From positions 1 through 64,000 of the IMG/VR virus record IMGVR_UViG_3300028361_000020: DNA of 64,000 bases; one strand, written 5' to 3'. Below the pieces are notes generated by a model that was not told the DNA's origin, ran no database searches, and saw nothing but the letters and a program-made list of their open reading frames with translations. Source of the DNA: a virus. Lineage: Duplodnaviria > Heunggongvirae > Uroviricota > Caudoviricetes. This document shows positions 4,700 through 57,592 of the stretch, in pieces. The position numbers were made by a program, and so were the translations under genes. The number at the start of each line of letters is the position of its first letter. Positions within the stretch are counted from its first letter, which is position 1.

Positions 4700-5227
4700 T
4701 CAATTTTCATAGAAATCATCAAATTCATCATCCAGGTCGATCTCCTGGCTACTGCCACCTGTGTCATATGCTTTGTAGTAATATTCGTTGGGCATCAAAA
4801 CTCTCACATCTGGTAATACCAGTTGTGCCAGCAGCAATGTTCTGTCACTGATTTCAGTTACATGCCAAGCTGTGCCACATCCGCCACCGAAGCAATGAAT
4901 TGAGCCATGGGCCCGACCTTTTAAAAATTCTTTAAGCTTGTAACCAGCTGACGTGATTATGCGGTTGACCCGTTTTTTACCGCTTAGTCTTTCTGCATCA
5001 TCCTCGGTGAGTGTTGTAATCTCAGCACAGTTATCGTTGCCAATGGTAAGTAAACATCTCTTGATTTTGATGCTGCCCTTGGTGCCTGGATTGTCCGGAG
5101 TTTCTTTTGTGCTCCATGGCAATTCACAAGTCACGTGGTCGACGTAAAATGTCTGGCCCTTGGTTTTCACAGCCCACATTGGGATGGTTGGGTCTGTTAG
5201 GTGTCCTTTGTTAAAGTGGAACACCAA
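4700..5227 (-). CDS. hypothetical protein with HCFGGGCGTAWH motif and acidic C-terminus, 175 aa
   Basis: ORF; no family recognised. Confidence 0.45.
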   Translation of the reverse strand: MVFHFNKGHLTDPTIPMWAVKTKGQTFYVDHVTCELPWSTKETPDNPGTKGSIKIKRCLLTIGNDNCAEITTLTEDDAERLSGKKRVNRIITSAGYKLKEFLKGRAHGSIHCFGGGCGTAWHVTEISDRTLLLAQLVLPDVRVLMPNEYYYKAYDTGGSSQEIDLDDEFDDFYEN

Positions 5228-5383
5228 ATCTTTGCATGCTATTTCTACCTATGACATTATTTCTCTCCTGTTATATGTCTTTTAATTATTTATATTATGG
5301 CAACCTAACTGACGATCTTAATGGGTATTGACTTGCGTCGCAGGGTTTCAGGATTGTTGCCTTTACTACAAACCCTTGTTCGA

Positions 5384-5908
5384 TTAGCAGTTGAGCAAGT
5401 TGCACCAGTTTTTAAAATACTGGTGCAACTGCGTTGTTCGTTTGTGTACGCCGTAATGATACAGCATAAAGTCTTTGGAATTTTGCTTCTTGTCAGCAAT
5501 CAACATATCTTTTACTTCGGGCAACAACAGTCCAACAACTCGGCAAATGTCATCAAGTGTAAAATCATCTGTGCCTGGCCTGCATAGGTACGAGTTAGCT
5601 GTACGACGATATTCCATGGTTAGCATAATTACATACGGGTCAAACAGTTTGATCGCTGCAACGTTTTTTGTTAAGTCTGCATCATTTTGAAAAATTGGAT
5701 GCAGACAATATGCTGCAATTGCAGCCGGGGTCGCGCCTAGTTGGTTGAGAATTTCAATACCTTCATCGATGTGGTTCATTAATTTGACGCCGCTTCGATC
5801 AGTGATATCATCTTTATAATAATCGGATATCGCCGAGTATTCTAAGGACCGCATTATGTATATCTCCATTGTTGTTTCGATAGCATTTTTACAACAGGCT
5901 TCAGCCAT
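5384..5908 (-). CDS. hypothetical protein, possible HD-type phosphohydrolase, 174 aa
   Basis: H...HxD...H...D spacing (LMNHIDEGI, CLHPIF, KLFDPY) is only suggestive. Confidence 0.35.
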   Translation of the reverse strand: MAEACCKNAIETTMEIYIMRSLEYSAISDYYKDDITDRSGVKLMNHIDEGIEILNQLGATPAAIAAYCLHPIFQNDADLTKNVAAIKLFDPYVIMLTMEYRRTANSYLCRPGTDDFTLDDICRVVGLLLPEVKDMLIADKKQNSKDFMLYHYGVHKRTTQLHQYFKNWCNLLNC

Positions 5909-6030
5909 ACTGCTAAGGTTGAATACAGTTTTGCGACAAGTCGTTAATAACTACTGTTTAGGTCGAATTGTTATCAACTTAGTTGATTTCTTATCTAGAA
6001 TCAATCAACGGCTCAGAGGTTGTAACAAAT

Positions 6031-6104
6031 TGGTGCCCCCAATGGGATTTGAACCCATATACGCGGGGTTAGAAGCCGATGCATAACCGTCATGCTCCGG
6101 GGGC
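6031..6104 (-). tRNA. tRNA with anticodon CTA (amber-suppressor type) at canonical positions 34-36; anticodon stem weak
   Basis: Standard numbering fits throughout (acceptor GCCCCCG/TGGGGGC, D GCAT/ATGC, T ATGGG-TTCAAAT-CCCAT, CCA encoded); loop TTCTAAC. Confidence 0.55.
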
Positions 6105-6160
6105 GTTGTTTAGCGAAAGAGGAGTCGATTTTTGAGTTCACACTGCACTTCTGTATTTGT

Positions 6161-6232
6161 TGGCATCGGCGGAGATAATCGAAATCTACCTTTTGGGTTT
6201 TGGAGACCCATCTGCGTCCTACGCTCACCGAC
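6161..6232 (-). tRNA. tRNA-Trp (CCA)
   Basis: Anticodon arm TGGGT-CTCCAAA-ACCCA perfect; acceptor pairs with two wobbles; T-loop TTCGATT; CCA encoded; short D-arm. Confidence 0.7.
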
Positions 6233-6269
6233 AATAATTTTCTGTTCCTAATGTCATACTAAGTTGTTT

Positions 6270-6422: not shown

Positions 6423-6451
6423 ACTGTACAGTATTTAGTTGAGCGTGTCAA
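6423..6451 (-). promoter_or_regulatory. sigma70-like promoter TTGACA-17-TACAGT facing the Pro/Trp tRNA group
   Basis: Minus strand reads cttgTTGACAcgctcaactaaatactgTACAGT. Confidence 0.5.
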
Positions 6452-6460
6452 CAAGTATTT

Positions 6461-6528
6461 ACGAGAAGATTCGAACTTCTACCTCCGGTTCCAAATGCTG
6501 CAAGGCGTCCGGCGAACTACCATTATTC
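6461..6528 (-). ncRNA. degenerate tRNA-like element (T-arm AGAAG-TTCGAAT-CTTCT present; no acceptor pairing)
   Basis: T-loop signature only. Confidence 0.3.
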
Positions 6529-6828
6529 TACATAACTACTGCTCGTCCGTTCCTACGTTAGTTTCTTCCGACATCGCTATACAGTAGTGTCCCTGCTTTC
6601 CTGCCAGGTTTACTTCGCTTTGCCAGTGTGCCTGCCTAGCCCTGCCCTAGTTCACGGTTTTTACGCTTTGCAACATGTTACACACTGGTTCCACTCTGCT
6701 CTCCCGGCGCTGCCGCCCGGTCTTTCAGTATGGGTCTTTCGTTGCCCCCTAACGCGGTGACTTTCGATCTCTTAGCGGATAATTTAATCCGCGTTTAACT
6801 TATAGCTTCGACTAACTAAAATGCTGGA

Positions 6829-8953: not shown

Positions 8954-9268
8954 TCATGAGTGACGTACACTGCCACCAGCTTTGACCGAACCGCCGACGT
9001 TGTCACATCTAACACTTCCACCAGCTTTAACATTGCCGCCGACATCATCACTTCTAACACTACCGCTGGCTTTAATGTCGCCGTTGACTGTTGTGCAATT
9101 AACAGATGCACTGGATGTTAAATTATTAATAACACCTTCTAGTACTCGTATCTCTACAATTCCAGTTGCGTGAATTTCTTCACCGTTGATTGTAATTACA
9201 TCTCTCGTTACCGACACGTCTCCAGTTTTTGAAGTGTATGTAACGCCGTTAATACTAACCGTATTCAT
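8954..9268 (-). CDS. small repeat protein with tandem VGG(N/S)VKAGGSVR units, 104 aa
   Basis: Three or four tandem peptide repeats near the C-terminus; its own TTGACA promoter upstream. Confidence 0.45.
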   Translation of the reverse strand: MNTVSINGVTYTSKTGDVSVTRDVITINGEEIHATGIVEIRVLEGVINNLTSSASVNCTTVNGDIKASGSVRSDDVGGNVKAGGSVRCDNVGGSVKAGGSVRHS

Positions 9269-9295
9269 TGTAAGCCTCTTTGTTGTTGTTAACTT

Positions 9296-9324
9296 ATACT
9301 AGCATTTCTGCACAGTGTTGTCAA
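9296..9324 (-). promoter_or_regulatory. sigma70-like promoter TTGACA-17-TAGTAT for the repeat-protein gene
   Basis: Minus strand reads aagaggTTGACAacactgtgcagaaatgcTAGTAT. Confidence 0.45.
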
Positions 9325-9474
9325 CCTCTTGTAAGTAGCAAGCTACGGTAACGATCCGTATATAAATGATTGCATTTTCAATGGACTTATAGCTAATATC
9401 CCCACTTACTAATATCACTTGATCAGCCCCTTCCGCGGCCTGCTTCACCTTTAGCTTAACTTGCTGTAATTAGG

Positions 9475-13490: not shown

Positions 13491-13877
13491 TTAGTACAAC
13501 ATCTCGTATCCAGTTCCTGTAAGCGCGTGCTTTAGTTGAGACCAAACACCAGGTTCCCATTCTCCTGGAATAGTAGATCTGCCTTGCTTTTCACACTCGT
13601 CAATTACGTCCTTTGCTTCTTTGAGTCCATATCCTGTTGAGGCGCGCACTGCTTTAATAGCTTGGATTTTTTGTCGGCTCAAGACACCGGGTACAGCGTG
13701 AATAGTCATTGATCCTGTTACGTTGCCTTTGATCATTGCAAACAACATCTGGCGCTTTATAGCCGGATCCAATGCATCCAGCATTGCATCTGCTTTTTCT
13801 TCTAGCAATCCTATCTCTTGATCCACTGCTCGCATAAATGATATAGTTGCGTAAATAAATTCTCCTGAATACTTCAT
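13491..13877 (-). CDS. protein with a ribosomal L7/L12 (bL12) C-terminal-domain-like module
   Basis: KIQAIKAVRASTGYGLKEAKDVIDE resembles the bL12 CTD signature K(V)IKAVR..TGLGLKEAKDLVE; the N-terminal 60 aa are unrelated. Confidence 0.55.
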   Translation of the reverse strand: MKYSGEFIYATISFMRAVDQEIGLLEEKADAMLDALDPAIKRQMLFAMIKGNVTGSMTIHAVPGVLSRQKIQAIKAVRASTGYGLKEAKDVIDECEKQGRSTIPGEWEPGVWSQLKHALTGTGYEMLY

Positions 13878-29373: not shown

Positions 29374-29756
29374 AAAGAAGAGGCCTTATATGCAGCCGCT
29401 TCTTTACGTTTGGATTTCCATGTTAGTGAATCACGCATTTTTTCATATGCTGCAATCTTTTCATCATAGAAGTTCATCATACTATCAAGTCTAGCAACCG
29501 CATCAGGAGAGGTGTCGCCTGCGCGGCTGTTTTCACACATCATGTTCATCTTTGCCAGATGACAATGAACAATAGAATCTTGAAACATTTGACCTAACAT
29601 ATTAGAATCTTCATAGTCAATGGTGACTTTAGTCATCTTTGTTAATCTCCGAAACAACTTGTATTCTAGCACGATACATGCCACCCTTGATCTTTTCGCC
29701 ATCGGTTTCACCTTTGGAAAATACCTCAGCAAACTTAACTCTTTTAGCTTGATCAA
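29370..29756 (-). CDS. hypothetical protein, 128 aa (start uncertain; overlaps the cca 3' end)
   Basis: ORF. Confidence 0.3.
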   Translation of the reverse strand: MIKLKELSLLRYFPKVKPMAKRSRVACIVLEYKLFRRLTKMTKVTIDYEDSNMLGQMFQDSIVHCHLAKMNMMCENSRAGDTSPDAVARLDSMMNFYDEKIAAYEKMRDSLTWKSKRKEAAAYKASSL

Positions 29757-30894
29757 ATACTTTCTTTAGTTTCTGCAAATGTTGTACATCTACATTTTCA
29801 CAGCCTAGTCTGCCGCGTTCGTCGCACTCGCCTACTCTTAGCAGCAAGTCTACAACTTCTGGATTTCTCCAAGCATCCATTTCTGTAAACATTTTTACAA
29901 ACGTTTTTGGATTCAACGAGTCTAACTTGTGCATGTGCATGTGAAATCTTGTGGTCTTCATCGCACGGTTGCGCATATTAGAAGGCACAGACAGCCTATT
30001 GGCAAAGCTTTCTACAACAGCAACACCTGTGACTTCATGGCCGTAGTGCTTGGGCAGTGCTGCTCTAGGCGTTAGACCTTTGCCAAAGTCGTGTACCAGT
30101 GCAGCAAATCGCGTTTCTAGGTCGTAGCCAAAATCAACTGCGGCAGTTAGTACCAACATTGTGTGCTCGTACGCATCGCCTTCGGGGTGCCATCGCCGCG
30201 CCTCTAGTGCAGTCTTTAGCTTGTACACTTCGGGAAAAATCACATGCAAGGCATCCGTTTCCAACAGTGTGTCAAAAAACAGGCGCGCATGAGGCTCCAT
30301 TAGTGCTCTTCTTGTTTCTTTCCATACACGCTCACTTACTAGTTCATTAAGAACACCGGACTTGGCCATTTTTGAAACCATTGCAACTGTTTCGGGTGCA
30401 ACTGTCCACTCAGGACCTAGTCTGGCGCGAAATCTCGCCAGACGCAATACTCGTACAGGATCTTCGGCAAATGCATCACTGGTGTGCCGAAGGACTTTTG
30501 CTTCTAAATCTTCCAAGCCACCATATGGATCAAAGAACGCCCAATTGTCGTTGGTGTCAGTGTCTATTGCAAATTCACTTTCGGTCAGTTTCTGCATGGC
30601 CATGCTGTTGACAGTTAAGTCTCGTTGGCCCAAGTCTTCCAACAGTGTAACATCTGTACCAAAATCGCTGGTGAATCCCAAGTAACCTTCGCCAGTTTTA
30701 TGTTCGCGACGTGCAAGTGCATATTCTTCATTGGTCTCAGGATGCAAAAATACAGGAAAATCAGCACCAACTTGTCCAAAACCGTCAGCTAGCATTTGCT
30801 CGGGTGTAGAACCAACTACTACCCAATCTCGGTCTTCGACAGTACGCCCCAGCCGCATATCTCGTACCGGGGCGCCTACTAAATGTCTTTCCAT
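29629..30894 (-). CDS. cca: tRNA nucleotidyltransferase (CCA-adding enzyme, class II with HD domain)
   Basis: N-terminus HLVGAPVRDMRLGRTVEDRDWVVVGSTPEQM..DFPVFLHPETNEEYALAR is close to E. coli Cca; HD motif ALVHDFGKG. Confidence 0.85.
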   Translation of the reverse strand: MERHLVGAPVRDMRLGRTVEDRDWVVVGSTPEQMLADGFGQVGADFPVFLHPETNEEYALARREHKTGEGYLGFTSDFGTDVTLLEDLGQRDLTVNSMAMQKLTESEFAIDTDTNDNWAFFDPYGGLEDLEAKVLRHTSDAFAEDPVRVLRLARFRARLGPEWTVAPETVAMVSKMAKSGVLNELVSERVWKETRRALMEPHARLFFDTLLETDALHVIFPEVYKLKTALEARRWHPEGDAYEHTMLVLTAAVDFGYDLETRFAALVHDFGKGLTPRAALPKHYGHEVTGVAVVESFANRLSVPSNMRNRAMKTTRFHMHMHKLDSLNPKTFVKMFTEMDAWRNPEVVDLLLRVGECDERGRLGCENVDVQHLQKLKKVFDQAKRVKFAEVFSKGETDGEKIKGGMYRARIQVVSEINKDD

Positions 30895-37362: not shown

Positions 37363-37650
37363 TCAACACTGTCCACAATGGCCAACCCTTCGGTTACACA
37401 GGTTGCACATTTCAACGATTTTGCATTGTCCTCGAAATGCGTTACGTCTGCGTTTTTGGCTAACACCCTGACGAGTCCCCCATCCTGATCCTCCTAAAAA
37501 GCTACTGTCTGACTTTTCAAAAATCTCTTGAATGTACTTTTCTGCTTCTTCTCTTGTGGTTGATTGAGCAACTTTATGCTGTCGTATATATACAACAAAC
37601 GGCCTGTTGGGTTCAGGCTCGGTAAACCAAGATTTAAACCACGACAGCAT
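37363..37650 (-). CDS. hypothetical protein with a C-terminal Cys cluster (start at internal MLSWFK)
   Basis: ORF; the longer reading overlaps the rnlA C-fragment. Confidence 0.35.
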   Translation of the reverse strand: MLSWFKSWFTEPEPNRPFVVYIRQHKVAQSTTREEAEKYIQEIFEKSDSSFLGGSGWGTRQGVSQKRRRNAFRGQCKIVEMCNLCNRRVGHCGQC

Positions 37651-38566
37651 CAGCAACCTCCATCCATTTAGCACAAGCTTTCCATTGTACATTTGTGTTG
37701 ATGTGCTTTGATACATAATGCAATAACATCTCGCGCATGTCGTCGCCATCCAGCAAGCGAAACACAAAGCTGGCGTCGGTCTTGTTTTGCAACTTAGGAA
37801 TAAACTTTGTAGCAACCGACTTACGATCTGGATATTTTACAGCTTTTTCATAAAGTGCCTTGACACGATCTTCGGTGCGACCAAACGCATCCCAGAATCG
37901 AACTTCGAAATCGCGGATACGATCTGCATCTACTTGTGGCAACTGGCCGATCACATCGTCGAGATCCTCGTTGACAATCAATGCAACAATGTTACGATCG
38001 AACCGCACACGATCCAGTGTTTTATGGATACGCACATACCAGTCGTTCTTGCCTTTGTACATCTCGCCGTTGAAGCTGATGATAAACCCTTCACGACCTT
38101 CGTCGTTGCGGTGCTTGGCAACGTAGTCATCCAGCGTACCATCAACCGAGTCATGTAACACAACTTGTGTAATTGAGTCCGGTGTTGAATTCTGGCGACC
38201 CAAGTAGTTGCCAGTTAGATTATGACGGATTGCCAGCAGCACAAGGTCAGCAGATCGATATCCTAGCACAATCTGGTTATCGGGCGCTACAAACTCAAAC
38301 AATGGAGTAACTCCCATTTTTACAGCTTTTTCTAACCAATGCATTTCTGCTTGGTAGTTAGAACGAGTACGCATGTACCTTTCGGCTTGCTCGCTCACAT
38401 CAGTTACCCCCATCTTAGTAGCAAGACGGACAACGCCATTAATGATCAATGGTCTAATCATTGAGTTATGCACAAGAATGTTATTAGCAAAAAAATTATT
38501 AGTAGATGTCTGGATGTCATATCGGAGAGAATTGTTTCTAATTTTTTTAATATTTGCAATTTTCAC
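37634..38566 (-). CDS. rnlA: RNA ligase 1 (RnlA) C-terminal fragment preceded by a 34-aa split-intein C-half (IntC)
   Basis: MKIANIKKIRNNSLRYDIQTSTNNFFANNILVHN|S resembles DnaE IntC and ends with HN+Ser; the downstream extein SMIRPLIINGVVRL...FEFVAPDNQIVLGYR matches T4 Rnl1 after KEDG. Confidence 0.8.
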   Translation of the reverse strand: MKIANIKKIRNNSLRYDIQTSTNNFFANNILVHNSMIRPLIINGVVRLATKMGVTDVSEQAERYMRTRSNYQAEMHWLEKAVKMGVTPLFEFVAPDNQIVLGYRSADLVLLAIRHNLTGNYLGRQNSTPDSITQVVLHDSVDGTLDDYVAKHRNDEGREGFIISFNGEMYKGKNDWYVRIHKTLDRVRFDRNIVALIVNEDLDDVIGQLPQVDADRIRDFEVRFWDAFGRTEDRVKALYEKAVKYPDRKSVATKFIPKLQNKTDASFVFRLLDGDDMREMLLHYVSKHINTNVQWKACAKWMEVADAVVV

Positions 38567-38602
38567 AAATTTTCCTTTACAAAGTAGGTGTTTGTCTAGT
38601 TT

Positions 38603-38610
38603 TTATATAA
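38603..38610 (+). promoter_or_regulatory. T4-late-type promoter box TATAAATA upstream of the plus-strand homing endonuclease gene
   Basis: tttttaTATAAATAcc, then SD-like aaggat 8 nt before the ATG. Confidence 0.4.
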
Positions 38611-38634
38611 ATACCATACACGAAGAAATAAAGG

Positions 38635-39651
38635 ATGTCAACTATGAAATGTTATGTTTGTGAAGATAAAATAGAAGAAAAGTTCAGTCATTTTTATACA
38701 TGCGCTAACGGCTTATCCAAACCGGAACATTTAATAAATCTTATATGCTATAATTCTAACACAAGCAAGTCAGATTTTAAAAATGACCTAATAAATATGT
38801 ATGTTGTTCAGGATTTTTCAATTAAGGATTTATTAGATCATTTTAACATACAACGGTTATCAAGTAGTACGTTATATAAGATTATATATTACTTAGGTAT
38901 TCCTAAGAAGACTACCACGAGATCAAAACGAACTCAAGAAAAATACAAAAAAACTTGTCTTGAAAAATACGGCACAATAAATGCTCTTTCCAAAGATACA
39001 ATTGCATATCATAAACGAAATGATACTGTAAAACGTAAATATGAGGTCGACAATGTCAGATCGGCGCAAGAAATAAAGGATAAAATTAATATTACTATGC
39101 TTGCCAAATATGGAACACTACGAAGAACAAATATTGAGAAGCAGAAAGAAACAAAAGCAAACTGGTCTAATGAGTACAGAGCTGCGCTTGGTGATAAGAT
39201 TAGTGCTGGCCGTAAAAAGTGGTGGGCTAATTTAACAGATTCAGAAAAATATAATGCTTGTAAAAGATCTGGGCTTAACCAATATTCTGGCAAAATGAAT
39301 TCTATTGAGTCGGTAATTGCCGAGGCGCTAGCTTCATTAGGAATATCGTATATATTTTCATATTTTATTGGGAATAGACAATTTGACTTCAAGATAGGCA
39401 CTATATTGATTGAATGTCAAGGTGATTTCTGGCATGCTAACCCAATATTTTATAACGAAGGAGACGTTGTAACTCATCCAGGTAATAAAAATAAACCAGT
39501 ATCTGATATTTGGGAAAATGATAAAAAGAAACAATTACTTGCCGAAAAGAAAGGATTTACAGTTATTGAAATATGGGAATATGAAATTAATAACTGTACT
39601 GATCTACCCCAACTTATTCTTCAAAAAATAGAAGGTCTTCTTCCCCAGTGA
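38635..39651 (+). CDS. free-standing homing endonuclease-like gene (N-terminal Zn finger, KYGT repeats, C-terminal Vsr/DUF559-like PD-(D/E)xK nuclease domain) lying between the two rnlA fragments
   Basis: Only plus-strand gene in the region; AT-rich; C-terminal ILIECQGDFWH ... KGFTVIEIWEYE resembles Vsr/DUF559 motifs. Confidence 0.6.
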   Translation: MSTMKCYVCEDKIEEKFSHFYTCANGLSKPEHLINLICYNSNTSKSDFKNDLINMYVVQDFSIKDLLDHFNIQRLSSSTLYKIIYYLGIPKKTTTRSKRTQEKYKKTCLEKYGTINALSKDTIAYHKRNDTVKRKYEVDNVRSAQEIKDKINITMLAKYGTLRRTNIEKQKETKANWSNEYRAALGDKISAGRKKWWANLTDSEKYNACKRSGLNQYSGKMNSIESVIAEALASLGISYIFSYFIGNRQFDFKIGTILIECQGDFWHANPIFYNEGDVVTHPGNKNKPVSDIWENDKKKQLLAEKKGFTVIEIWEYEINNCTDLPQLILQKIEGLLPQ

Positions 39652-40303
39652 GCTCATCTGCCCGTATATAATCGCTTATATCGGTGCACCAAATTTTGTG
39701 ATTTCCAGTAAGTTTTAGGATATGCCCATTAGTCAATTCTATTTCATACCAATCATCACATTGGGTTTTAATAGCCGATGCCAATACAGGTGTCCACATT
39801 ATCTGCTTTTTTAAATTCTGCCCTAATACAAGTCCATTATAGTTAGTTTCACATAAAAATTTTATAGTTTTGCCACCATCAGGTGTTGCAATAATACTAT
39901 CTTCATCAAGACACCCGTCCATTTTTTCCATAACAGTGTGCGGACGTGTCATGTCGATGTTTTTTGACAGTGTTTCTTCACGCTCGTTGATGTTAAAAAA
40001 CTTGTGGAACGGACGAGACATAAGTTCTCCGTCTTCACCAAATATCAATCCGCGGCATTCGCGCTTGATCCTGCTGGACAGGCTGCGTTCTTCACGCATC
40101 TTTGCGCTGCCGCCTGCAACTGCAATTGGTGGAAAGGTGTCTGGCATGGACACGGCATAGTTAATTACAGTAAAGCCGTCGCGCTCTGCAACAATAAACT
40201 CGTCACATCCTTTGATATGCGGAAGTACATCGTTGATAGTGCGTATCTCGGGAAATTTGTAAGACATGTTGCCTCCATTAAACTCTAGCACTACTCGGTG
40301 CAT
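39614..40303 (-). CDS. rnlA: RNA ligase 1 (RnlA) N-terminal fragment fused to a split-intein N-half (IntN)
   Basis: RECRGLIFGEDGEL..RPFHKFFNINE..NIDMTRPHTVMEKMDG matches T4 Rnl1 up to the KxDG adenylation motif; it is followed directly by intein block A CLDEDSIIATPDGG and block B TNGHILKLTGNH. Confidence 0.8.
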   Translation of the reverse strand: MHRVVLEFNGGNMSYKFPEIRTINDVLPHIKGCDEFIVAERDGFTVINYAVSMPDTFPPIAVAGGSAKMREERSLSSRIKRECRGLIFGEDGELMSRPFHKFFNINEREETLSKNIDMTRPHTVMEKMDGCLDEDSIIATPDGGKTIKFLCETNYNGLVLGQNLKKQIMWTPVLASAIKTQCDDWYEIELTNGHILKLTGNHKIWCTDISDYIRADELTGEEDLLFFEE

Positions 40304-54773: not shown

Positions 54774-54877
54774 TGGTGGAGAGAAATGGAATCGAACCAC
54801 TGACACCAGGCTCTTGCCCGTGCTCTACCTCAACAAATTCGTTCTGCAGAACTCCTTCGTCTCTGAGCTACCTCTCC
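54774..54877 (-). ncRNA. tRNA-like RNA (104 nt) with about 29-nt insertion (palindrome GTTCTGCAGAAC) in the D-loop and a tetraloop in place of the anticodon loop
   Basis: Acceptor GGAGAGG/TCTCTCC, T-arm AGTGG-TTCGATT-CCATT and CCA are canonical; the body is aberrant. Confidence 0.35.
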
Positions 54878-54975: not shown

Positions 54976-55094
54976 CAACCTCTCAACGAAGTGGTTGTAT
55001 GCAGGACCTTGGATAAGGCAGTCGTTGCTGCCTAAGCTTGCTATCCTAGTCTTTAAACCAGGAAGGAAGTTAATCTTTCTCGCAAGCTATTGTT

Positions 55095-55171
55095 GGACTA
55101 GGATGGACTTGAACCAACGACCTCCCACGCGACAAAGCATAGGCGCTCTTCCAATCTGAGCTACGTAGTCC
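55095..55171 (-). tRNA. tRNA-like; D-arm and T-arm canonical, anticodon arm unresolved, no CCA
   Basis: GCTC-AGATTGGAA-GAGC; GTTGG-TTCAAGT-CCATC; acceptor GGACTAC/CTAGTCC (6 of 7 pairs). Confidence 0.35.
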
Positions 55172-57220: not shown

Positions 57221-57592
57221 TTAGCAAAGTGTGCGAACCAATGCCATATCAGCACTGGTACCAAACTCTGATTTTACAGCTTTCATCACTTGTCCGATGT
57301 TGCCGCCGGATTGCAGAATTGGCTCAATCACAGCTCGCAGTTGTAGCTCAGTTGCCATAGCAGGAAGATACTTGGAAAGGATTGCGATCTCTTGTGGATC
57401 AGCAAACTTGTTCTCCTTTAGCTTCTGCACAGCTTTCTTGACATACTGGACTGCTTCGTCAGCGGAGGTTTCTCGGGTATTATCATTCTTGCCAATTTTC
57501 TGAATTTCATCTAAGTGAAACACCATTACACTTGCAAGTGGATTCTTTTCCTTGCGCATTACAAGTACATCAGTTTTGAATAGTTCGAGCAT
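57221..57592 (-). CDS. GatB/YqeY-domain protein
   Basis: C-terminal GNIGQVMKAVKSEFGTSADMALVRTL matches the YqeY/GatB C-terminal helical domain signature. Confidence 0.6.
   Translation of the reverse strand: MLELFKTDVLVMRKEKNPLASVMVFHLDEIQKIGKNDNTRETSADEAVQYVKKAVQKLKENKFADPQEIAILSKYLPAMATELQLRAVIEPILQSGGNIGQVMKAVKSEFGTSADMALVRTLC

Follow-up and report, generated by a model that had tools for sequence, protein, structure and literature searches.

Xanthomonas phage XacN1 encodes two CUA suppressor tRNAs in a genome that follows the standard genetic code, and in-silico read-through did not reveal any targets (PMC5852040). Among the gut phages in which TAG has been recoded (code 15), 40–52% carry a suppressor tRNA with the anticodon CUA (Sup-CUA). 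The recoding is concentrated in genes for late functions and lysis, with early genes remaining in the standard code, and it has been linked to very low GC content; standard-code relatives carrying suppressor tRNAs have been proposed as precursors of recoding (Borges et al. preprint 10.1101/2021.08.26.457843; PMC11210395). The psu1+ amber suppressor of T4 is a mutant of the T4 tRNA-Ser (McClain 1970, as cited in PMC8386662).

We have analyzed a stretch of 64,000 nucleotides (the window) from an uncultured T4-like phage with a GC content of 42%. The gene at 6031..6104 on its minus strand is a genuine tRNA gene with a CUA anticodon that has been maintained in evolution. As in XacN1, the CUA tRNA is located in a very large phage tRNA array, in a genome that reads well in the standard code, and in-silico read-through of TAG gives no target. 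However, the window tRNA belongs to another sequence family, for which blastn finds no match among 50,697 cultured-phage records, and it comes from a T4-like aquatic phage, has invariant G8, G14 and U21 residues, and shows conservation and covariation across relatives. With the suppressor tRNAs of the code-15 crAss-like and Lak phages it shares the CUA anticodon, the location on a phage genome and, presumably, charging by a host synthetase. In contrast to those phages, the phage studied here has no in-frame TAG and no "code-change module" of RF2 or synthetase genes in about 103 kb, TAG is not depleted, and there is no Rfam match beside the tRNA at E≤1. Like psu1+, as this suppressor is presented in the citing article, the window tRNA would be a UAG-reading tRNA from the tRNA cluster of a T4-type phage. 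psu1+ arose in the laboratory by mutation of the anticodon of tRNA-Ser, a class II tRNA whose variable arm is long, whereas the window tRNA is natural, has a variable loop of 4 nt, and belongs to a family that keeps CUA across diverged phages.

The only feature in common between the window tRNA and tRNA-Pyl is the anticodon CUA. In tRNA-Pyl, the anticodon stem has 6 bp and the variable loop 3 nt, a single nucleotide separates the acceptor stem from the D stem, and the D loop is small and lacks GG. In the window tRNA, two nucleotides (G8 and A9) separate these stems, the anticodon stem has 5 bp, G18G19 is present, the T-loop reads UUCAAAU and the variable loop has 4 nt (4–5 nt in the family). 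Thus, the hallmarks of tRNA-Pyl are absent and the window tRNA is not a tRNA-Pyl; no pyl genes were seen. The label "Pyl" that ARAGORN attaches to the orthologues is given to any tRNA with the anticodon cta and reflects the anticodon only.

The longest contig listed for the protein cluster of the 174-aa ORF next to the tRNA is 251,140 bp, which was taken as the approximate genome size. Several samples in JGI, ENA and Logan contain contigs of the same phage (at least 99.86% nucleotide identity). The tRNA is identical in every same-phage locus covering 6031..6104, and seven other fetched loci, from at least six samples, agree with it base for base. The best cultured-phage matches to its rIIA protein are T4-like myoviruses with at most 42% identity. 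Searches of the region by megablast and blastn against the 50,697 cultured-phage records gave a match to the tRNA-Pro only, or none, and no nucleotide-level relative. Genes on the minus strand fill the window densely and follow the standard code, including genes for rIIA, nicotinamide phosphoribosyltransferase, NadR-like and NMNAT-Nudix enzymes, a radical-SAM protein, thymidine kinase, a metallophosphoesterase, a T4-type RNA ligase 1 and a Macro-domain protein. The Sup-CUA tRNA is part of a co-oriented array of about 30 tRNA genes. The features of relevance for the analysis are:

6031..6104, minus strand: Sup-CUA (amber-suppressor-type) tRNA gene of 74 nt, supported by a full-length match to Rfam RF00005, orthologues and covariation
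6031..6033, minus strand: encoded CCA of the Sup-CUA tRNA
6070..6072, minus strand: anticodon CUA, tRNA positions 34-36, from the Infernal alignment (TAG on the plus strand); invariant in 10 of 10 family copies
6063..6079, minus strand: anticodon arm UCGGC-UUCUAAC-CCCGC, with three G-C/C-G pairs flanked by U27·C43 and C31·C39
5384..5908, minus strand: 174-aa ORF, the conserved syntenic neighbour downstream; Pfam HD_4 (PF13328) in 2 of 120 listed homologues
6105..6269, minus strand: spacer between tRNA-Pro and the suppressor with decayed tRNA-Trp(CCA) remnants, from the alignment with L016 and L025
6270..6348, minus strand: tRNA-Pro(UGG), the upstream neighbour, syntenic with the suppressor, from ARAGORN and Rfam calls and relatives
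6423..6451, minus strand: candidate sigma-70-like promoter TTGACA-17-TACAGT (10/12) from a consensus scan, upstream of tRNA-Pro and the suppressor
29629..30894, minus strand: tRNA nucleotidyltransferase (CCA-adding enzyme), Pfam PolyA_pol, PolyA_pol_RNAbd and HD; phrog_2244

The set of translation-related genes is unusually rich. In addition to the CCA-adding enzyme (29629-30894), which could be used to maintain the 3' termini of phage tRNAs, among them the Sup-CUA tRNA, the window encodes a bL12-like protein (13491-13877) and a YqeY/GatB-tail-like protein (57221-57592). Beyond its high end, the same phage encodes bS21, ClpS, an IF1-like protein and a PP-loop protein of the TilS type (L032, 1680-1907, 1917-2216, 4450-4665 and 7335-7928, respectively). 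Genes for a heme oxygenase and a ferredoxin-dependent bilin reductase are located just past the high end of the window (L032, 2216-3425), and a gene for an alternative oxidase (AOX/PTOX-like) is located at 836-1519 in the window. Pigment and redox auxiliary genes of this kind are known from cyanophages and other marine phages.

Several unusual elements were observed in the window. A full-length GOLLD RNA (RF02032, 179 bits vs 150) lies inside the tRNA array at 2500-2960 on the minus strand, with a tRNA-like element embedded at 2832-2894, and the relative L018 also has a GOLLD RNA (4836-5301, 205 bits). The tRNA at 6456-6537 (minus strand, Rfam 42.6 bits) was missed by ARAGORN and has 20 nt at the bottom of the anticodon arm, as compared to 9 in the model (CCGG-ACGCCUUGCAGCAUUUGGAA-CCGG), which could be an insertion, a mini-intron or an aberrant anticodon arm. 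The tRNA-like sequence at 54777-54877 (minus strand, 35.8 bits) has a 36-nt insertion in the D-loop and an anticodon loop of 4 nt, and thus no normal decoding is to be expected from it. At 55094-55171 (minus strand) there is an aberrant tRNA-like sequence of 27 bits, below the Rfam threshold, to which ARAGORN assigns the 4-base anticodon ttgt. The RNA ligase 1 region at 37634-40303 looks like a split-intein "fractured gene" arrangement: an N-terminal piece with an intein N-splicing/Hint domain (39614-40303, minus strand) is separated by a homing-endonuclease-like ORF on the opposite strand (38635-39651, plus strand) from a second piece (37634-38566, minus strand), which starts with a weak match to the terminal part of the intein splicing domain (17 bits, below the Pfam cut-off of 35.8). 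About 28–29 kb past the low end of the window, in the same phage, three small adjacent ORFs of 82, 86 and 90 aa (L036, 21415-22192), each in a frame of its own, are located at a distance from the tail genes, with thymidylate synthase on one side and PhoH on the other. Matches to the T4 major capsid family Gp23 were obtained for the first ORF, only weakly, and for the second, and the ORFs could be fragments of a capsid gene or small Gp23-like proteins.

The sequence of the tRNA gene, read on the minus strand from 6104 to 6031, is GCCCCCGGAGCAUGACGGUUAUGCAUCGGCUUCUAACCCCGCGUAUAUGGGUUCAAAUCCCAUUGGGGGCACCA. It has an acceptor stem of seven pairs (GCCCCCG/UGGGGGC), the last of which is G·U, a D stem GCAU/AUGC, a T arm AUGGG-UUCAAAU-CCCAU, a variable loop of 4 nt (GUAU), and a 3' end with discriminator A followed by the encoded CCA. 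The Rfam model RF00005 aligned to 6034..6104 on the minus strand over its full length (model positions 1-71 of 71) with 44.8 bits, as compared to a gathering score of 29, and with E = 2.6e-06 in a search of the whole window against all Rfam families; this score is within the lower third of the array. The Infernal alignment divides the anticodon arm into UCGGC, UUCUAAC and CCCGC, and the only non-standard pairs in the stem are 27:43 (U·C) and 31:39 (C·C). The loop UUCUAAC places U33, C34-U35-A36 and A37 in their canonical positions, so the anticodon is CUA. The loop thus has the 7 nt, the U33, the CUA at 34-36 and the purine at 37 (A37) of a Sup-CUA tRNA. A preliminary description of this locus had proposed the same arms, the same CUA anticodon and a stem of three central G-C pairs with two mismatches, and the Infernal alignment agrees with it on each point. 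An alternative fold with another anticodon, which would have contradicted it, did not emerge: Infernal and ARAGORN, the latter on the orthologues, both give CUA. None of the 28 tRNAs that ARAGORN called in the window, each of them on the minus strand, is the CUA tRNA at 6031..6104, which was missed because of its anticodon-stem mismatches; the check by this program that had been proposed gave the anticodon cta for the orthologues with at most one such mismatch. A minimum-free-energy fold of the single sequence gave no cloverleaf and was no better than for shuffled sequences (z = -0.69).

Scans of IMG/VR with exact anticodon-arm and T-arm/acceptor patterns gave no orthologue. Two orthologues, L016 and L018, were found by synteny, via homologues of the 174-aa ORF directly downstream (5384..5908). 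The neighbour ORF is 78% identical in L016, with DNA about 80% identical, and 70% identical in L018. Both loci carry a tRNA at the same site, after tRNA-Pro and before the ORF, and ARAGORN assigned the anticodon cta in both. G8, A9, the D arm GCAU-GACGGUU-AUGC and A26 are common to the window, L016 and L018, while paired changes relative to the window copy are seen in the acceptor, anticodon and T stems. A second search over metagenome contigs, using a pattern of the D arm and GGGTTC from which the anticodon was excluded, yielded seven more copies (L019-L025). Five of these were called as cta by ARAGORN, and the two that it missed are those with two anticodon-stem mismatches; members with at most one such mismatch are called as cta. 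The family thus consists of 10 copies including the window (8 distinct sequences), of which the 9 others represent 7 distinct sequences. The search pattern forced an identical D arm in 7 of the 10 copies, so that only the three copies linked by synteny speak for the invariance of the D arm. As the D stem does not vary, it gives no covariation test.

U33-CUA-A37, G8/A9 and the encoded CCA were invariant in all 10 copies. In the family alignment, 97.5% of the cells in the cloverleaf stems are standard pairs, and changes on both sides were observed in 12 of the 20 pairs. None of 500 shuffled controls reached the observed values for pairing and covariation, and slid partners were paired in 33–44% only. 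The cloverleaf was recovered unaided by RNAalifold from the eight family members. The covariation across diverged phages indicates that the CUA tRNA family is demonstrably under selection, and the alignment identifies the window tRNA as a member of a CUA-anticodon family conserved among related aquatic phages. The suppressor-type tRNA of the preliminary description is thus borne out by the conservation of CUA and the covariation of the stems in relatives.

The three inner pairs of the anticodon stem, 28:42, 29:41 and 30:40, covary within the family (CGG/CCG, UGG/CUG, UCG/CGA, GCG/CGC and GAA/UUC). At the two outer positions the copies differ as follows:

Pair 31:39, window and L025: C·C
Pair 31:39, L018 and L020: C·U
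Pair 31:39, L016, L019, L021/L024 and L022/L023: A-U or U-A
Pair 27:43, window, L025 and L021/L024: U·C
Pair 27:43, L020: G·A
Pair 27:43, remaining loci: paired

The C31·Y39 mismatch is found in 4 of the 8 distinct members and U27·C43 in 3 of 8, while the anticodon stems of L016, L019 and L022 are fully paired. The anticodon arm of L025 is that of the window, with both mismatches, and the two copies differ by compensatory changes at 6:67 (C-G to U-A) and 49:65 (A-U to C-G), which implies that structural selection continued after the mismatches had arisen. The comparison thus indicates that both mismatches are variants tolerated in the family and inherited, with no sign of decay. The anticodon stem of the window tRNA has only three Watson-Crick pairs, and the decoding efficiency of the tRNA may be lowered by this. 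We also considered a slipped register in which the tRNA would be a tRNA-Arg(UCU), as suggested by a syntenic tRNA-Arg(UCU) in L002 and by a slip in the C-run at 38-41 that gives the loop CUUCUAA. This register was rejected because the fully paired orthologues L016, L019 and L022 fix CUA at positions 34-36. L002 is a distant relative (a 172-kb IMG/VR contig), and its tRNA-Arg(UCU) at the syntenic site (5904-5979) has a C31·U39 mismatch. The same contig carries a tRNA with the anticodon UCA (101-177, 72.8 bits), which is of the opal-suppressor type and is labelled "SeC" by ARAGORN.

The neighbourhood offers a direct contrast in the same phage. L016 and L025 have an intact tRNA-Trp(CCA) at the spot corresponding to window 6105..6269, where the window has only remnants, namely GGGUCUCCAAAACCC from the anticodon arm and ...CUCUUUCGCUA from the acceptor/3' end, the latter carrying an internal deletion. 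This spacer has no Rfam match even at E≤1, and no tRNA-Trp was called by ARAGORN anywhere in the window. The adjacent tRNA-Trp has thus decayed by deletion, whereas the Sup-CUA tRNA is intact.

The core of the window tRNA has G18G19 and the T-loop UUCAAAU, but it departs from the canonical core (U8, A14, A21, G18G19, UUCNANU) at positions 8, 14 and 21, where G8, G14 and U21 replace the near-universal U8, A14 and A21. In a comparison with 166 other distinct tRNAs of the fetched phage loci, 131 had U8 together with A14 and only one had G8 together with G14. L016 and L018, which were found independently, have the same G8, A9 and D arm as the window copy, so that these are conserved features and not damage. 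In silico, the D arm could be extended to six pairs via G14·U21 and A15-U20. The acceptor end is variable, with the variants GCCCCCG, GCCCUUG, ACCCCUA, GACCCUA, GCGCGUA and CACUCUA in the family, and the discriminator is A, G or U. Since the 1:72 pair is also variable, no single synthetase identity is evident. Pairwise similarity to the 166 labelled phage tRNAs showed no consistent nearest isotype; the ties, to Lys-CUU, Cys and Gly, were weak. Family members that differ in the acceptor end may even differ in amino-acid identity.

Stop-codon usage was analyzed in about 103 kb of the genome of about 251 kb (about 41%), which comprises the window, 9 kb past its high end and 30 kb past its low end; the other about 148 kb (59%) include the major capsid, portal, terminase and lysis genes. 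The 86 curated minus-strand genes of the window end with TAA in 56 cases, TGA in 23 and TAG in 7, and the corresponding counts for the two extension sets were 16, 15 and 5, and 17, 9 and 1. In total, TAG terminates 13 of 149 genes (about 9%) in the about 103 kb and is a minor but undepleted stop. The largest ORFs of the window were essentially unchanged under TAG read-through, and read-through of its seven TAG-ending genes adds 0–26 codons only, with no UAG target found. No in-frame TAG was found within genes in the about 103 kb, including the late tail genes. Four late tail and baseplate genes, of 81 to 1884 aa, were without in-frame TAG, and the low-end late genes (a 1884-aa tail fibre, two gp9/10-like baseplate connectors and a 1022-aa He_PIG protein) are uninterrupted and all end with TAA. 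Two apparent TAG-fused ORFs were rejected: for the window pair 8954..9469, the one candidate in the same frame, L016 has several stops in the upstream frame, and L021 1001..1843 consists of two genes, each with its own start. Domains of release factors, RF2 included, or of aminoacyl-tRNA synthetases were absent from the Pfam annotations of the about 103 kb, and no TAG-split genes were seen in the loci of relatives. Hence, the signs of code 15 (in-frame TAG in conserved genes, depletion of TAG, and RF2 or synthetase genes) were not seen in this part of the genome. The preliminary description had associated the tRNA with stop-codon recoding and had pointed to TAG counts and in-frame TAG in late genes as the place to look, and both speak against such a link in the about 103 kb.

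A looser anticodon-arm pattern retrieved 10 otherwise dissimilar phage Sup-CUA tRNAs from IMG/VR (L006-L015), with the arm GCGGC-UUCUAAC-CCCGN, C31·C39 included. This arm was imposed by the search pattern, and the result therefore shows only that the C·C arrangement recurs. The local genes of these 10 unrelated tRNAs read well in the standard code. The contigs include one of 161 kb with a tmRNA and 23 tRNAs and another of 318 kb, and the D stem GCAU/AUGC of L011 and L014 is common to the window family. These tRNAs and the window family may form a wider suppressor superfamily.

Taken together, we consider it probable that the window tRNA is a functional amber suppressor that works as a UAG reader in a standard-code T4-like phage, and our confidence that the gene is maintained is higher still. 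The Sup-CUA tRNA would be transcribed together with the neighbouring tRNA-Pro, perhaps from the candidate sigma-70-like promoter at 6423..6451, matured by the host RNase P and by 3' trimming to the encoded CCA, for which the phage CCA-adding enzyme would be at hand for 3'-end repair, and charged by a host aminoacyl-tRNA synthetase. The charged tRNA would then pair with UAG in competition with release factor 1. In a genome with an otherwise standard code, the expected outcome is that UAG is partially read through and that amber mutations are rescued. Besides this rescue, candidate purposes are interference with termination in the host, C-terminal extension of proteins at a low level, and a pre-adaptation to recoding, which has been proposed for gut phages.

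Of the other explanations, a tRNA pseudogene that is decaying or already non-functional was raised in the preliminary description. It would be consistent with two mismatches among the five pairs of the anticodon stem, with the replacement of U8, A14 and A21 by G8, G14 and U21, with the missing ARAGORN call and with the low rank of the Rfam score, as well as with the presence of aberrant tRNA-like genes and tRNA remnants in the same array. However, G8, A9 and the D arm are the same in the two orthologues found by synteny, 12 of the 20 stem pairs show compensatory double changes, and L025 combines the same arm with compensatory change in other stems. CUA, CCA, U33 and A37 are invariant, and the truly dead tRNA neighbours in this phage, such as the tRNA-Trp, have lost whole arms. 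The marks of a pseudogene, namely uncompensated loss of pairing and of conserved positions and a lack of conservation in relatives, were not observed. Decay is therefore contradicted by the family, and we regard a pseudogene as unlikely. A role that does not involve decoding seems more remote still, be it as a sink or decoy for an anticodon nuclease of the host or some other defence directed at tRNAs, or as a processing or structural element of the array; there is no pointer to the decoy of the preliminary description. The phage does encode genes of the tRNA-repair type (RNA ligase 1, metallophosphoesterase and CCA-adding enzyme) and several tRNA-like genes that are unable to decode, for example 54777..54877, and the acceptor stem and discriminator vary freely in the family. 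However, the features that are conserved, namely the 7-nt loop, U33, CUA, A37, CCA and the T-loop, are those needed for decoding, and we know of no defence that targets a CUA tRNA, which counts against a decoy.

It is also improbable that the tRNA decodes a reassigned UAG in late genes outside the examined DNA (capsid, portal, terminase and lysis), as in crAss-like and Lak phages. Such a role would agree with the strong association of Sup-CUA tRNAs with code-15 phages (carried by 40–52%), with the concentration of their recoding in late and lysis genes while early genes keep the standard code, and with the strictly conserved anticodon of the family; about 59% of the genome lies outside the recoding test. 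Against it stand the absence of in-frame TAG from the about 103 kb, four late tail and baseplate genes included, the use of TAG as stop in 13 of 149 genes (about 9%), the lack of an RF2 or aminoacyl-tRNA synthetase gene among the Pfam-annotated genes, the loci of relatives without TAG-split genes, and a GC content of 42% as compared to the very low GC linked to recoding. In a related and equally doubtful scenario, the family would be a phage-controlled system for decoding UAG rather than an incidental suppressor, with in-frame or regulatory UAG in the remaining 148 kb as targets. The invariant non-canonical body (G8, G14, U21 and the possible 6-bp D stem), together with the conserved CUA and the variable acceptor and discriminator, would fit with such a system. 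The tRNA would then be recognized via its body or its anticodon, perhaps aided by phage translation factors, for which the YqeY/GatB-tail-like protein at 57221..57592 and the bL12-like, bS21 and IF1-like proteins are candidates. If true, partial recoding of TAG or programmed read-through would be seen here for the first time in a lineage of T4-like aquatic phages.

The functional amber suppressor that we consider probable belongs to a new sequence family within a known kind, the phage Sup-CUA tRNAs, and by itself the window tRNA reveals no new mechanism. Its family provides a natural set of variants, with 0, 1 or 2 anticodon-stem mismatches and with A, G or U as discriminator, for the study of how positions 27:43 and 31:39 tune suppression. 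It is also a reminder that ARAGORN misses Sup-CUA genes with mismatched anticodon stems. Phage suppressor tRNAs have been proposed as the first step to stop-codon reassignment, while their role in standard-code phages is unexplained. The family adds a clean example from a T4-like aquatic lineage that has an exceptionally rich translation toolkit and in which TAG is still an ordinary stop, and thereby a concrete genome for asking whether the acquisition of a suppressor precedes recoding.
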